Assembly: GCA_020718085.1 (NCBI GenBank)
Contig: DYDB01000001.1
Span: 47,384 to 111,383 of the forward strand
Length of the DNA stretch: 64,000 nucleotides
Direction of reading: 5' to 3'
Source of the DNA: Micavibrio sp.
Lineage (GTDB): Bacteria > Patescibacteriota > Minisyncoccia > Moranbacterales > GCA-2747515
Positions 6,358 through 54,859 of the stretch are shown here, piece by piece; the first letter of the stretch is position 1; each line of letters opens with the position of its first letter. The translations under genes were made by a program, and so were the position numbers. The notes beneath the pieces were generated by a model, which was not told the origin of the DNA, did not search any database, and was given only the letters and a program-made list of their open reading frames with translations.

Positions 6358-6416
6358 GTCATTCCAGACCTGCCTACCGACAGGCAAACGTCGACTTTGT
6401 TTCTAGGATGACAAGC
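6358..6416. repeat. MITE-like repeat, family B (gtcattccGACCctgcctaccgRcaggca...ggatgacaag)
   Basis: Near-identical copy at 27141-27198. The core also occurs reverse-complemented at 13285-13332, and fragments occur at 52694-52719 and 53287-53310. Confidence 0.6.
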
Positions 6417-13284: not shown

Positions 13285-13332
13285 GTCATTCCCGCGTAGC
13301 CTGCCTGCCGGTAGGCAGGGTCGGAATGACAA
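13285..13332. repeat. Family B repeat core (reverse orientation, palindromic)
   Basis: gcctgcctgccggtaggcagggtcggaatgac is the reverse complement of the B1/B2 core. It is flanked by a gtcattcc / ggaatgac inverted pair. Confidence 0.5.
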
Positions 13333-22542: not shown

Positions 22543-22681
22543 AATGAAAGAATATTATCATTTTTTGTTAAAAAACATCCTCTCCCTAAGGGAGAGGATT
22601 GAGGTGAGGGAGGAATAAAATTATTAATTACGCAATAGAGTATTGATTAATTCTTCCTATCAGTATATACTAATATGGAAT

Positions 22682-27140: not shown

Positions 27141-27198
27141 GTCATTCCGACCCTGCCTACCGGCAGGCAGGCTTCGACTTTGCTCAGGATGACAAGTG
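27141..27198. repeat. MITE-like repeat, family B (best copy)
   Basis: gtcattccgaccctgcctaccggcaggcaggcttcgactttgctcaggatgacaagtg. Internal palindrome cctgcctaccggcaggcagg. Near-identical to 6358-6416. Confidence 0.6.
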
Positions 27199-51184: not shown

Positions 51185-52663
51185 ATGACCACAAAATACA
51201 ATGTAACGATCGGTATGGAGATCCATGTGGAACTCAAAACAAAATCCAAAATGTTCTCCAGTGCGCCAAATCATTTGGGTATGGAAAAGACGCCAAATAC
51301 ATCAATTGACCCGGTAACGATGGCACAACCTGGTAGTTTACCGGTGCCGAACCGGCAAGCAATCGAATTTGTACAAAAAGCGGGGCTGGCATTGGAGTGC
51401 GAGATTGCTCGCAAAAGCAAATTCGATCGAAAAAATTATTTTTATCCCGATTTGCCAAAAGGATATCAAATTTCGCAATATGATATGCCGCTGTGTGAAC
51501 ATGGAAAGGTAATGATCGGTGACAAAGAAATTGGCATTACACGCATTCACATGGAAGAAGATACGGGTAAATCTACACATCCATCCGGCATGTCATATTC
51601 ACTTGTGGATCTTAATCGTGCAGGTGTGCCACTTATGGAGCTTGTAACTGAACCGGATATTACCAGTGGAGCGCAGGCAAGACTTTTTTGTCAGAAATTA
51701 CAGCAGATCTTTCGTTATATAGATATTGCCGATGCGGATATGGAAAAGGGACAGATGCGTTGTGAGGTGAATATTTCTCTTTACAAAAATGGTTCAGATC
51801 GCTTAAGTGGTCAAAAGGTGGAGATCAAAAATCTCAGCTCGTTCCGTGTTGTGGAAAGGGCCATTGATTATGAAATTGAAAGACAGACGAAAGCACTTGA
51901 GGGTAATGAGGTGATCGTACAGGAAACGCGCGGATGGGACGATGTAAAAGGCAAAACCGTGTCACAACGCAAAAAAGAAAATGCGCATGACTACCGTTAC
52001 TTCCCAGAACCGGATATTCCTCCGATGACGTTTACTGATGCATATGTGGAACAATTGCGTCGTACACTTCCAGAGTTGCCACGACAAAAGGAAGAACGTT
52101 TTACCGCAGAATATAATTTGAGTGCGCAAAATTGTGGTGTGATCACGGCTGATATTGACATGGCAAATTATTTTGAACAGGTGGTAAGTGAGATCATGGA
52201 TAAGAAAGCATCCGGAGAAATGCATGCGGATTCCGAAAAAACAATAAAACTTGCTGCAAACTATTTGGTGAGTGAGGTGCAGAAGCATCTCGTAAAGGAT
52301 GGACAAAGAATTAGTGAGACAAAAATATCTGCAGAAAATTTTGCAGAACTGATGGCGATCATTGCTGATGGCACGATCAACTCTTCTGCCGCACAGATCG
52401 TATTGGAAGAAATGTTCTATGGGGAAGAAGATGATCCGAGTCGCATCATCGAAGCAAAAAATCTTGCGCAAGTGTCGGACGTTGGTGCATTGGAGCAACA
52501 AGTTGATGAGGTGATCGCGTCAAATGAACAATCTGTTGTGGATTATAAAGCAGGGAAGGAAAATGCCATCAAATACCTTATGGGACAAGTAATGAAAGTA
52601 TCGGGAGGTAAGGCAAATCCGCAAATGGTGATGGAAATTCTTGTAAAAAAATTGGCTGAATAA
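51185..52663 (+). CDS. gatB: Asp-tRNA(Asn)/Glu-tRNA(Gln) amidotransferase subunit B
   Basis: N-terminal IGMEIHVEL...KMFSSAP and full-length GatB/YqeY architecture. Confidence 0.9.
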   Translation: MTTKYNVTIGMEIHVELKTKSKMFSSAPNHLGMEKTPNTSIDPVTMAQPGSLPVPNRQAIEFVQKAGLALECEIARKSKFDRKNYFYPDLPKGYQISQYDMPLCEHGKVMIGDKEIGITRIHMEEDTGKSTHPSGMSYSLVDLNRAGVPLMELVTEPDITSGAQARLFCQKLQQIFRYIDIADADMEKGQMRCEVNISLYKNGSDRLSGQKVEIKNLSSFRVVERAIDYEIERQTKALEGNEVIVQETRGWDDVKGKTVSQRKKENAHDYRYFPEPDIPPMTFTDAYVEQLRRTLPELPRQKEERFTAEYNLSAQNCGVITADIDMANYFEQVVSEIMDKKASGEMHADSEKTIKLAANYLVSEVQKHLVKDGQRISETKISAENFAELMAIIADGTINSSAAQIVLEEMFYGEEDDPSRIIEAKNLAQVSDVGALEQQVDEVIASNEQSVVDYKAGKENAIKYLMGQVMKVSGGKANPQMVMEILVKKLAE

Positions 52664-52670
52664 AATAGAC

Positions 52671-52820
52671 ACCCTCATCCGCCCTTCGGGCACCCTGCCT
52701 ACCGGACAGGCAGGCTTCTCCCATGGGGAGAAGGGGTAAGAAGAAAGAATAAGAGTAAGAAAATTTAAAAAACATTTAAGCCCCCTCTCCCTCTGGGAGA
52801 GGGTTGGGGTGAGGGTGATA
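52671..52820. repeat. Composite GC-rich repeat module upstream of DUF559 gene
   Basis: accctcatccgcccttcgggcacc + family B core + ttctcccatggggagaagggg + ccctctccctctgggagagggttggggtgagggtg. The modules recur at 53202-53326. Confidence 0.55.
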
Positions 52821-52847
52821 ATGTAGATTTTTAGAGGTAAAGATCTT

Positions 52848-53198
52848 ATGTATAATACTTCTATCTCAAAAGCACAATTGTTACGTAAAAAACAAACGCC
52901 ACAAGAAATAAAAATGTGGGCGCGATTGCGCAATCGTCAGTTTCATGACTTAAAATTCCGTAGACAATGTGTGATCGGTCGATATATTGTGGATTTTCTT
53001 TGCATGGAAAGCAAACTAATTATTGAAATTGACGGATGGCAGCATAAGCAAGGATTTTCCGGAATTGAAGAAATTGAACGTACGAAATTTTTAGAAAAAG
53101 AGGGTTATCACATTGTGCGTTTTTGGAATAATGAGATCGATCAAAATATTGATGGTGTGTTCTTGCGGTTAGAGGAGGAAATTGATGATCGTCTTTGA
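52848..53198 (+). CDS. DUF559 endonuclease-domain protein (Vsr-like fold)
   Basis: QTPQEIKMWARLRNRQ...KFRRQ...GRYIVDFLC...LIIEIDGWQH is typical of DUF559. Confidence 0.7.
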   Translation: MYNTSISKAQLLRKKQTPQEIKMWARLRNRQFHDLKFRRQCVIGRYIVDFLCMESKLIIEIDGWQHKQGFSGIEEIERTKFLEKEGYHIVRFWNNEIDQNIDGVFLRLEEEIDDRL

Positions 53199-53201
53199 TT
53201 A

Positions 53202-53326
53202 ACCCTCATCCGCCCCTTGGGCACCTTCTCCCATAGGAGAAGGGGTAAAAGGAAAAGTATTCTAAAAACACCCTCTCCCTCTGGGAGAGTCTGCCTGTCC
53301 GGTTGGCAGGGGCTGGAGTAAGGGTG
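53202..53326. repeat. Composite GC-rich repeat module downstream of DUF559 gene
   Basis: accctcatccgccccttgggcacc + ttctcccataggagaagggg + ccctctccctctgggagag + inverted family B core tctgcctgtccggttggcagg. Confidence 0.55.
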
Positions 53327-53905
53327 TTAAATTAACGCATTGATATGAAAAAAGTAGTAGATCGTACCAATTACTTCGTGTATGAAAAATTGGGGTTCTT
53401 TGAAATAGCGTCCGCGATAGTATGTGGCACGATGGAGGGAAAAGTTGGAGATGTTTTGTTGGTTGGCAAGTAGGGCAATGCGACCGAGATGAAAATCATT
53501 TGATACAAAAACAAAGCTTGTATTTTCCGGAAGATTTTTGATCGTTGCGCGCGTGTTGAGTCCGTTATAATCAGCAACGATCTTTTTTGACTCTATATTA
53601 TTTTTTTGTGCTAGTTTCTTCATAACATCCACTTCATGTGCGCCGTAAGTGGATGGTCCACCGGAAAAGATGAGGCACGATACTATTTTATTTTTATACA
53701 GATCAATGCCGGTCATGGTGCGATCGTATAATGCATGAGAGGGGATATTATCTTTCCATACAGCTGCGCCGAAAACAACAGCACAATCTTTGTGAGCAGT
53801 ATCTGCGGCTGTGTAATTTTTTAGTGTATAAAGCGCGCTCACTGTAATTACTGCAGTGATCATGACAATGCACACAATACAAATTTTGACGAATTTTTTT
53901 ATCAT
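53327..53905 (-). CDS. DUF218 (YdcF/SanA/ElyC-family) membrane-anchored protein
   Basis: N-terminal TM. CAVVFGAAVW...SGG...VSNDFHLGR blocks of DUF218. Confidence 0.6.
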   Translation of the reverse strand: MIKKFVKICIVCIVMITAVITVSALYTLKNYTAADTAHKDCAVVFGAAVWKDNIPSHALYDRTMTGIDLYKNKIVSCLIFSGGPSTYGAHEVDVMKKLAQKNNIESKKIVADYNGLNTRATIKNLPENTSFVFVSNDFHLGRIALLANQQNISNFSLHRATYYRGRYFKEPQFFIHEVIGTIYYFFHINALI

Positions 53906-53908
53906 GAT

Positions 53909-54859
53909 CTAATTCTTTAGAAATTTTTGCGAAAGTTCAATGGCATCTTCTTCCGTGGTAATACGTACAATTGGCGCACCTTGTTTCTCCCAGCGTCGAA
54001 TCCACGTCTCTTGTCTTTTGGCATAGCTTTTGAGATCACGGATCGTATGATCGCGCATGAGGTCAAATGAGATCTGTCCACGCACATAGCGTGTACACCA
54101 TTTATATTCCAAACCAAAACTTTCCAGGCGTGACCATGGTACGTGCAACATATGATGTGCATGAAGAATTTCATCAAATATGCCTGCATCGAACCATGTG
54201 TCCATGCGTTTTTCTATTCGCGTATGTAGTATATCGCGCGGATGGGAAAGTGCAATGATGAGATCGTTTTGAGGATCGATCGGAGTGCGTGTTTCTGATG
54301 GAACACGTCCAAGTGCCGATGCAATTTCAATTGCACGGATCAGTCGTACAGGATTGTGTGCATCAACTTTTTTTGCATAGACAGGATCGATCTCCGTTAA
54401 TTTTTGTAGTAGTTGTTCTAAGGTGTGCTTTTGAAGTACAGTGCGCAGTTTTGAATTTGGTAATACAGTGGGGAAAATGACGTTCTCCACAAGTGCCTGT
54501 GCCCAAAACATTGTGCCACCACAGATGATCGGAAGTTTGTTTCTTTTTTTAATATCATTTTGTATTTGTGTGGCTTTGCGGACAAATTTGGCGACATTGT
54601 ATGCAGTGTTCGGATGTACGATGTCGATCATATGATGGTATATATCATCGGATATATATACATATTTTTTTCGGTCGAGGAAATCAGTATATGGTGCAAG
54701 ATGCCCAGGTTCTTTGCCTGTGCCAATCGTAAGATCGCGGTAGATTTGTCGAGAGTCCGCACTGATGATTTCGCCGTTGAAATGCTTGGCCAGTGCAATG
54801 GCAACGTGAGATTTACCAGAGGCTGTTGGTCCAATGATAGTGATCCTTTTATTCCGCAT
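53909..54859 (-). CDS. miaA: tRNA dimethylallyltransferase
   Basis: P-loop IIGPTASGKSHVAIALA and ISADSRQIYRDLTIGTGK. Confidence 0.9.
   Translation of the reverse strand: MRNKRITIIGPTASGKSHVAIALAKHFNGEIISADSRQIYRDLTIGTGKEPGHLAPYTDFLDRKKYVYISDDIYHHMIDIVHPNTAYNVAKFVRKATQIQNDIKKRNKLPIICGGTMFWAQALVENVIFPTVLPNSKLRTVLQKHTLEQLLQKLTEIDPVYAKKVDAHNPVRLIRAIEIASALGRVPSETRTPIDPQNDLIIALSHPRDILHTRIEKRMDTWFDAGIFDEILHAHHMLHVPWSRLESFGLEYKWCTRYVRGQISFDLMRDHTIRDLKSYAKRQETWIRRWEKQGAPIVRITTEEDAIELSQKFLKN

Follow-up and report, generated by a model that had tools for sequence, protein, structure and literature searches.

Most DUF559 genes of the clade surveyed here, in many phyla, are bracketed by inverted and often also direct copies of a dispersed palindromic element, the triplex motif (TM). 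One such gene lies in a 64-kb stretch of contig DYDB01000001.1, called "the window" below when taken at its full length, which is AT-rich (~41% GC) and, going by its nearest homologues, derives from a groundwater bacterium of Parcubacteria/Moranbacteria (CPR) type. It encodes a small Vsr-like nuclease and sits between gatB and a DUF218 gene, with GC-rich repeats on both sides. Judged by its sequence, the repeat is the published BoxC / PIT / TM_ECO intrastrand-triplex motif, CCCTCTCCC-loop-GGGAGAGGG-TTG-GGGTGAGGG, and not a new repeat. We give an even chance to the reading of this locus as a homing-like, selfish nuclease cassette that resides in palindromic triplex-motif repeats.

Association of DUF559 genes with triplex motifs

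The association was surveyed in 80 DUF559 loci from a genome collection, with the rest of the same loci as internal control; Moranbacteria, Saccharibacteria, Melainabacteria, alpha-, beta- and gammaproteobacteria, Dehalococcoidia, Bdellovibrionales, Rokubacteria and Binatia are all represented. The strict motif occurs at 0.98 per kb within 350 nucleotides (nt) of DUF559, against 0.057 per kb elsewhere (~17-fold). With a generalised detector, which requires a perfect hairpin of pyrimidine and purine arms and a mirrored third segment, the density is 3.02 per kb within 250 nt of the gene and 0.119 per kb elsewhere (25-fold); of the 80 loci, 58 have such a motif upstream, 65 downstream and 51 on both sides. 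Flanking repeats were scored by the best local alignment of the upstream flank with the reverse complement of the downstream flank, using 790 control positions in the same loci. The score exceeds the control 95th percentile in 63 of 79 loci (~80%), with a median of 19.5 against 8.5 in controls (Mann-Whitney P=5e-41). The arms reach 124 nt and end ~0-30 nt from the start and stop codons. Flanking direct repeats are significant as well (47/79 loci), since composite palindromes like those of the window are frequent among the flanks. Flanks of the kind that the initial annotation described for a single gene are thus carried by other DUF559 copies.

Loci that lack the canonical sequence display lineage-specific variants of the same design (e.g. 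CCTCCCC-tatg-GGGGAGG-atta-aGGTGGGG): the arm sequences vary by lineage, and the succession of pyrimidine arm, purine arm and mirror purine segment is kept. In these variants the third segment follows a mirror copy of the purine arm rather than a direct one (172 vs 23, counts that are not independent). Individual cases illustrate the range of flanks. A DUF559 homologue of Neisseria gonorrhoeae (match at ~49.5 kb of the record; not compared with NGO0050) has ~100-nt direct-repeat flanks containing a motif variant, the copy on Picosynechococcus pAQ6 has the triplex-motif flanking pattern too, and a Deinococcus copy, inserted between paaD and paaZ, is enclosed by a ~55-nt near-perfect inverted repeat. 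In E. coli K-12, TM#9 lies ~170 nt downstream of ycjD and a degenerate hairpin overlaps the stop codon of the gene. The last ~45 nt of ycjD are duplicated between this hairpin and TM_ECO #9 (L127:1700-1925; NC_000913.3 ~1351200-1351425). On a plasmid of Synechocystis sp. B12 (L299; CP101716.1, 14666-16159), a DUF559 open reading frame (ORF) with a motif-like remnant at its 3′ end lies between an overlapping hypothetical ORF and pglX, the BREX methyltransferase gene, and could have inserted into or beside a defence gene. The family as a whole is very large, nearly all of the 8000 candidates scored in a homologue search being significant, and the translated repeat accounts for many miscalled N-terminal extensions of database homologues (e.g. 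PLSLRER.., LPLPVGEGWGEG).

Seen from the side of the repeat, most copies are solitary. An exact 21-mer of the motif, GGGAGAGGGTTGGGGTGAGGG, is present in more than 120 contigs of a viral collection, of GC content 0.32-0.72, and only 2 of its 131 occurrences lie within 400 nt of a DUF559 gene, both in a single locus (L018); the other 129 (~99%) do not. Likewise, TM#9, together with the degenerate hairpin, is the only one of the 23 motifs of E. coli K-12 near a DUF559 gene. The repeats are not exclusive to the cassette: they belong to the known BoxC/PIT/TM_ECO family, and most copies are far from DUF559. The initial annotation had taken repeats occurring elsewhere without DUF559 as a sign of independent elements. 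Such copies do abound, yet the strength of the association from gene to repeat goes far beyond what independent elements would show.

The nuclease gene and its flanking repeats

The features of the locus, in window positions, are the following.

51185-52663, + strand: gatB (Pfam), its 3′ end facing the DUF559 cassette
52670-52694, + strand: outer part of L1, TM(-), made of C-rich tail CACCCTCATCC, linker hairpin GCCCTTCGGGC and ACC
52695-52714, no strand: palB (family B), CTGCCTACCGGACAGGCAGG, a small palindrome nested in the L1 linker
52715-52736, + strand: L1 hairpin, CTTCTCCC-ATGG-GGAGAAGGGG
52737-52780, no strand: AT-rich spacer in the upstream unit, not conserved in locus L002
52781-52817, + strand: R1, TM(+), with pyrimidine arm CCCTCTCCC (52783-52791), loop TCT, purine arm GGGAGAGGG (52795-52803), linker TTG and third segment GGGTGAGGG (52807-52815); canonical BoxC/PIT/TM motif, exact match, 0 expected
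52817-52847, + strand: leader from R1 to the start codon, with -10-like GATAAT (52817-52822) and GAGG (52834-52837), read by eye
52848-53198, + strand: DUF559 (Vsr-like, EDxHD-type) nuclease gene, 116 amino acids (aa), intact ORF, PF04480 profile
53202-53245, + strand: L2, TM(-) with linker hairpin, ACCCTCATCC GCCCCTTGGGC ACC TTCTCCC-ATA-GGAGAAGGGG, starting 4 nt past the stop codon
53246-53269, no strand: spacer of the downstream unit, similar to the spacer of the single unit in L281 (see below)
53270-53289, + strand: R2 hairpin, TM(+), ACCCTCTCCC-TCT-GGGAGAG
53290-53326, + strand: remainder of R2, with palB inverted (53290-53311) and degenerate G-rich tail GCTGGAGTAAGGGTG (53312-53326)
53327-53905, - strand: DUF218 gene (Pfam), its 3′ end facing the DUF559 cassette
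22578-22610, + strand: solo triplex-motif element, TCCTCTCCC-TAA-GGGAGAGGA-TTGA-GGTGAGGG, following a gene end, with a tRNA gene ~85 nt further downstream

The R design consists of a pyrimidine arm, a loop, a complementary purine arm, a 3-nt linker and a mirror purine segment. The L design, CCCTCATCC ... CTTCTCCC-loop-GGGAGAAGG, carries a small hairpin GCCC(T/C)T(C/T)GGGC in place of the 3-nt linker. Since L is the reverse-complement version of R, each flank is a near-palindromic L-spacer-R unit. The core unit is TM(+)-short leader-DUF559-TM(-), i.e. R1-gene-L2, enclosed by the outer inverted pair L1...R2. The inner pair is tight to the gene, with 30 nt from the end of R1 to the ATG and L2 only 4 nt beyond the stop codon. 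The 20-nt palindrome palB is a separate entity nested only in the linkers of the outer pair (in L1 and, inverted, in R2), so that L1 and R2 are inverted copies of one palB-carrying variant. By sequence, R1 corresponds exactly to the CCCTCTCCC / GGGAGAGGG / GGGTGAGGG design of the triplex motif, and the generalised detector finds exactly five elements in the window, of which four flank its sole DUF559 gene and one is the solo element.

The initial annotation had described the same ordered modules on both sides of the ORF, with the family B palindrome inverted downstream, and a repeat search recovered all of them: ACCCTCATCCGCCC(T/C)T(C/T)GGGCACC at 52671-52694 and 53202-53225 (92% identical), GGAGAAGGGGTAA.. 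at 52727-52746 and 53236-53255 (90%), ..CCCTCTCCCTCTGGGAGAG at 52778-52801 and 53266-53289 (92%), and the palindrome as an inverted pair at 52693-52716 and 53288-53311 (92% complementary). Each module had 0 matches in 100 dinucleotide-preserving shuffles of the window; the modules are confirmed not to be expected by chance. What had been listed as four separate modules reduces to one element, R, and its reverse complement, L, with palB nested. The placement of the gene between gatB and the DUF218 gene agrees with Pfam matches and coordinates, and a single short hairpin noted at 22579-22600 does exist, but as part of the complete three-part element at 22578-22610. Folded as single-stranded DNA, the flanks give a closed multi-branch structure (z=-4.4 upstream, z=-3.5 downstream). 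In a three-way alignment of the window with two homologous loci, L001 and L002 (mean column identity over the whole alignment 72%), R1 is near invariant, divergence is visibly greater in the coding DNA, and the spacers cannot be aligned. The near invariance of R1 next to diverged coding DNA indicates that the repeat is under strong constraint of its own or is homogenised.

The BoxC/PIT/triplex-motif repeat entered the catalogues in the 1990s, and is reportedly also treated by Bachellier et al. and by Hoyne et al. 2000. Table 1 of Holder et al. 2015 lists 23 TM_ECO motifs of E. coli K-12 that have the exact form of R1, and the element, also known under the names BoxC and PIT, is found in more than 260 genomes (PMC4666352). 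Motif copies are intergenic and often form inverted pairs of two linker types, and between-strain variability is raised at motif loci in E. coli. Single-stranded TM_ECO formed a purine-motif triplex in vitro, which was undetected in duplex DNA or in vivo, and no mobility function, transposase or integrase was found near the motifs; earlier work cited there reported PIT motifs to be without promoter or terminator activity (PMC4666352). Neither an endonuclease nor DUF559 is named in that paper.

The 116-aa protein matches PF04480 with 123.8 bits (cutoff 20.6; E=3.4e-36) over profile positions 5-106 of 109. It scores 95 bits with NCBIfam PRK09767, the YcjD equivalog model (cutoff 218), and is therefore not a YcjD equivalog. 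Residues E20, D49, E60, D62 and H66 are invariant across 38 homologues, and the active site looks intact. Sequence-profile comparison matched 3HRL (E=2e-31), the DUF559 structure of N. gonorrhoeae NGO0050, which is biochemically uncharacterised, and 3R3P (E=8e-4), the catalytic domain of I-Bth0305I. An AlphaFold2 model (predicted local distance difference test score 88.7) gave the same order in Foldseek, with template-modelling scores of 0.90 for 3HRL (E=1e-8), 0.6-0.7 for 3R3P (E=3e-5) and 0.45-0.51 for 1VSR (E=0.01). NGO0050 is closer to the window protein than I-Bth0305I, a homing endonuclease that is the nearest biochemically characterised relative in the PDB by both fold and sequence. As modelled, the protein has the alpha/beta core with conserved acidic and His residues of the Vsr-like/EDxHD fold. 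D49, D62 and H66 align approximately with D196, N208 and H213 of I-Bth0305I, equivalent to Vsr D51, H64 and H69. The protein corresponds to the catalytic domain alone, without a separate DNA-binding module. No cytosine methyltransferase was found among the named neighbours (gatB and DUF218 and, from homologous loci, miaA, MazG and ThyX-like; the rest of the window was not scanned). The linkage to a Dcm-type C5-cytosine methyltransferase that marks the Vsr repair family is thus missing among these genes, which makes a classical Vsr role unlikely.

In the leader at 52817-52847 a consensus promoter scan called no promoter; homologous loci have TGnTATAAT, an extended -10-like sequence, between the upstream motif and the ORF, and from the leader we infer no more than a promoter-like role. 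A structured-RNA reading of the flanks was set aside, as these are inverted DNA repeats with the -10-like TGnTATAAT between motif and ORF in homologous loci; a search of 52000-54000 against 4227 Rfam families (E<=1) gave chance-level matches alone (mir-350, SNORD15) and no known RNA family.

On the minus strand, the R2 hairpin (53273-53289) followed by GGTGTTTTTA scores as an intrinsic terminator just past the DUF218 stop codon, and may have been co-opted as the terminator of that gene. Copies of palB (CTGCCT-N-AGGCAG type) occur at 52695-52714, 53290-53311, 13301-13318, 27153-27170 and 6370-6387, always inside another repeat (the linkers of two triplex-motif modules and the loops of two other hairpins), so that from its positions palB looks like a parasite of hairpin loops and linkers. 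A second GC-rich hairpin family, GTCATTCC...GGAATGAC, has solo intergenic copies at 13286-13331 and 27141-27195, each with palB in its loop; these we take to resemble the neisserial dRS3 / ATTCCC-N8-GGGAAT elements.

Alternative alleles at the gatB 3′ site and the origin of the cassette

Syntenic comparisons came from a metagenome scan with MiaA, whose best match was 65%, with no very close relative. The backbone thyX-mazG-gatB | miaA-orf-hydrolase-thrS is common to the relatives, and the differences lie exactly at the gatB 3′ end:

L285 (same genome as the window): gatB 3′ site arranged as in the window
L300 (GatB 95%, DUF559 89%): filled, with the L1-R1-gene-L2-R2 layout and a different nested palindrome at the place of palB in R2
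L001 (MiaA 84%; contig ends before gatB): filled, the gene lying between an upstream R and a downstream L, with a different upstream neighbour
L301/L302 (GatB 78%): filled at the same site, R-DUF559-L-spacer-R, no DUF218
L281 (GatB 89%): 127 nt between gatB and DUF218, holding one degenerate L(palB remnant)-spacer-R unit; no DUF559
L278 (GatB 90%) and L210 (GatB 74%): gatB 3′ site occupied by a GIY-YIG nuclease gene, with flanks of another hairpin family, GTCATTCCCGCG..CGGGAATCC
L228/L002 genome (GatB 78%): gatB 3′ site with other ORFs; a DUF559 gene (65% identical) after rnhB, with L-spacer-R upstream

The outer module of L1 also precedes or follows DUF559 in L001, L002, L300 and L301. The DUF218 protein of L281 is 77% identical by tblastn over 176 aligned aa, and 73% in a protein search. 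Filled (window, L300, L001, L301) and empty (L281) alleles thus exist at one site, as is characteristic of homing endonuclease genes, the carriers being different species. An empty site in related genomes, the comparison that the initial annotation had suggested, is therefore available in L281, next to the GIY-YIG cassette in L278 and L210. These alignments support the view that the DUF559 gene is accessory at this site. From them it also follows that breakpoints between relatives lie in the repeats, and that the filled allele amounts to a single resident palindrome plus [R-gene-L]: the outer pair L1...R2 matches the single degenerate L-spacer-R palindrome of the gene-less syntenic relative. 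Two directions are equally readable: an L-spacer-R unit may have received R-gene-L in its spacer, or recombination between direct units may have deleted the gene.

The GIY-YIG loci bear on the relation of repeat and site. In L278 (4577-5096) and L210 (3700-4238) the small gene has inverted and direct copies of the GTCATTCCCGCG..CGGGAATCC hairpin, which is presumably dRS3-like. About 25 nt of the gatB 3′ end are duplicated in L278, and the GIY-YIG ORF of L210 is apparently interrupted by a stop codon. By their layout these loci look like a parallel case of a nuclease with its own repeat. Since cassettes at the same site carry another repeat family, the repeat goes with the gene and not with the site. 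In L001 (1-412), synteny with the window breaks exactly at the cassette, with an opposite-strand ORF in place of gatB whose translation has the look of a PrmC/HemK-type methyltransferase (no Pfam match on record); the break is consistent with rearrangement at the repeats.

The preferred reading, that of a selfish, homing-like cassette, would work as follows. The Vsr-like nuclease would nick or cut DNA at paired triplex motifs or between them, perhaps once these have been extruded into a hairpin, cruciform or triplex, and repair from the gene-bearing copy, with the 35-120-nt repeats as homology, would copy the gene into another palindrome. In reverse, recombination between the flanking direct repeats would delete the gene and leave one L-spacer-R unit. 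Gene-less solo or paired motif copies would be potential targets or scars, not products of this particular gene. That the DUF559 nuclease cleaves the repeats is something we infer.

Several observations weigh against such a cassette. The empty site of L281 may just as well have lost the gene as never have been filled. The gatB 3′ site is a hotspot that takes other inserts too; some of the co-location could reflect permissive intergenic sites. Both polarities, TM(+)-gene-TM(-) and TM(-)-gene-TM(+), are seen, and the gene therefore has no fixed relation to the motif strand. Motif copies vastly outnumber DUF559 genes and mostly lie far from one. The one set of identical proteins checked, P0094, showed the same context in 10 distinct places out of 22 contigs, and in this check no same or near-identical cassette was seen at two sites. 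No consistent target-site duplication was apparent by eye in more than 60 loci, and ycjD is fixed at one locus in whole E. coli phylogroups. The selfish homing-type cassette of the initial annotation thus gains from the accessory insertion, the family-wide bracketing and the kinship with I-Bth0305I, and loses in that no recent hopping is evident.

Other modes of spread fared worse. Terminal inverted repeats such as bound insertion sequences (IS) and miniature inverted-repeat transposable elements (MITEs) are present (63/79 loci), but the cassette contains no transposase; a simple transposon is disfavoured by this, by the lack of a visible target-site duplication, by the two polarities and by the absence of an identical cassette at two loci. 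Plasmid carriage of the family was rejected, a homologue being found in 44 of 72,556 plasmid records, many of which are chromids or mislabelled chromosomes, and scans of defence-system and phage libraries gave nothing informative. In keeping with the preferred reading, decayed DUF559 copies occur, with matches in two pieces in Klebsiella pneumoniae and 58-aa fragments in Pseudomonas aeruginosa. In E. coli, the block of ycjD and its motif and the eefRABCD efflux island are alternative alleles (3346 vs ~2080 of 5426 genomes). The species was dropped as a clean empty-site test, as the 7.6-kb island replaces the block (~38% of genomes) with no motif at the junction. All 5426 genomes match a query that contains TM#9, and one motif-only match, H30, was identified in the ycjD-negative genomes.

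Of the alternatives, the one that survives best, though we hold it unlikely, is modelled on repetitive extragenic palindromic (REP) sequences, their hairpin-forming doublets (REPINs) and the REP-associated tyrosine transposases (RAYTs). The repeats would then be the entity that moves or amplifies, and DUF559, inherited vertically in one copy, would cut or process them in trans; its gene would lie amid its own substrate, much as REP sequences surround RAYT genes. Such a division of roles suits the numerical excess of inverted repeat copies over the gene (23 to 1 in E. coli K-12, 129 of 131 solo in the viral contigs), the usually single and stable location of DUF559 within a species, the motif variants that differ by lineage yet match on both sides of each gene, and the lack of a transposase or integrase near motifs according to Holder et al. 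(PMC4666352). It sits badly with a PD-(D/E)XK/Vsr-type nuclease, which cuts but has no known strand-transfer activity, with the single solo copy in the 64-kb window, and with the ~38% of E. coli genomes that are without the ycjD block, in a species where every genome matches the TM#9-containing query (H30 being the motif-only case). The gene is also absent from close relatives and at other loci in others, unlike typical vertically inherited RAYTs.

A host function, with DUF559 as a structure-specific Vsr-like repair nuclease (for hairpin, triplex or mismatch) and flanks that serve as operator, terminator or mRNA-end structures, seems somewhat less probable still. The predicted Vsr-like fold, the triplex formed in vitro by this sequence (PMC4666352), the mirror symmetry of the third segment (the 172 and 23 counts not being independent), the resemblance of the minus-strand R2 hairpin to a DUF218 terminator, and a protein under purifying selection with invariant catalytic residues would all be expected of it. 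It does not explain, however, why inverted repeats of 40-120 nt should enclose a repair gene at ~80% of loci in different phyla, or why that gene should be patchy among close relatives and replaced at the same site by a different small nuclease cassette; nor does it accord with PIT motifs that lacked promoter and terminator activity in the earlier work (cited in PMC4666352) or with named neighbours (gatB, DUF218, miaA, MazG, ThyX-like) devoid of the dcm-type methyltransferase expected for a true Vsr. That a small nuclease gene and GC-rich palindromes simply share permissive sites between convergent genes, with adjacency as a by-product, is highly improbable: different inserts at the gatB 3′ intergenic site, the unusual variability of motif loci in E. 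coli (PMC4666352) and the many solo copies would fit, but not the 17-25-fold enrichment against the same loci with their many intergenic regions, the P value of 5e-41 for flanking inverted repeats, arms that end a few nt from the ORF, or GIY-YIG cassettes that bring a different repeat family to the same site.

Comparison with known systems

The DUF559 family, the BoxC/PIT/TM repeat and Vsr-like domains as homing enzymes are all known already. A literature search (DUF559, ycjD, motif, BoxC/PIT/TMECO, I-Bth0305I) found no paper that links DUF559 to the repeat, within a coverage that is incomplete and leaves novelty unproven; the systematic cross-phylum link between them appears to be new and absent from the searchable literature. 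Because ~80% of the surveyed DUF559 genes are bracketed likewise, the family is a candidate partner of a repeat whose origin is unexplained. The physical link offers a candidate substrate for DUF559/YcjD/NGO0050 and a candidate actor for the spread or instability of the repeat. It is tempting, if rather doubtful, to see in DUF559 the missing enzymatic partner of BoxC/PIT/triplex-motif repeats, in a second cross-phylum system of REPIN-RAYT-like or homing type that would recognise non-B DNA (hairpin or triplex). DUF559 would then drive its own spread together with the genomic instability reported around the motifs, and a bare Vsr-like domain in dispersed palindromes would be one more way of life known for selfish nuclease genes. 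Judging from the GIY-YIG cassettes, which have a repeat family of their own, the pattern of nuclease plus repeat may be general.

Among known systems, MITEs and other IS-related units bounded by terminal inverted repeats (e.g. Correia elements) share with the DUF559 cassette the 20-120-nt terminal inverted repeats around a small unit, and the gene-less palindromic pairs resemble non-autonomous derivatives. The cassette differs in being without transposase or evident target-site duplication and in having both motif polarities around the gene. Vsr itself is similar in fold and catalytic residues, and many DUF559 homologues bear the JGI label 'very-short-patch-repair endonuclease', but the window locus is without a neighbouring cytosine methyltransferase and the match to 1VSR is weak (E=0.01, template-modelling score 0.45-0.51).

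I-Bth0305I, in a group I intron in recA, stands for the view that Vsr-like (EDxHD) domains may serve in homing (Taylor et al. 2011, PMC3239194). Its likeness to the window protein extends to the catalytic fold, the residues equivalent to D49, D62 and H66, and the status of an accessory gene with presence/absence polymorphism. Whereas I-Bth0305I has an N-terminal NUMOD/helix-turn-helix DNA-binding region, the window protein is a bare catalytic domain of ~115 aa, free-standing and located in dispersed repeats, not in a conserved gene.

With REP/REPIN-RAYT systems the locus shares the arrangement of one small enzyme gene between inverted copies of a dispersed and far more numerous palindromic repeat with lineage-specific variants. 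The RAYT is an HUH/Y1 transposase, whereas DUF559 is a Vsr-like PD-(D/E)XK nuclease of patchy presence, and the repeat linked to it has three segments, is triplex-capable and is nearly identical across phyla. The closest counterpart of the flanks is BoxC/PIT/TM_ECO itself, of which R1 is an exact instance, and with which the window elements share intergenic location, frequent inverted pairs of two linker types, occurrence in many phyla and variable loci. Around DUF559, the linker often contains a hairpin or a nested palindrome; and whereas the repeats of the literature are orphans with no enzyme or mobility partner, the copies in the window bracket a nuclease gene.

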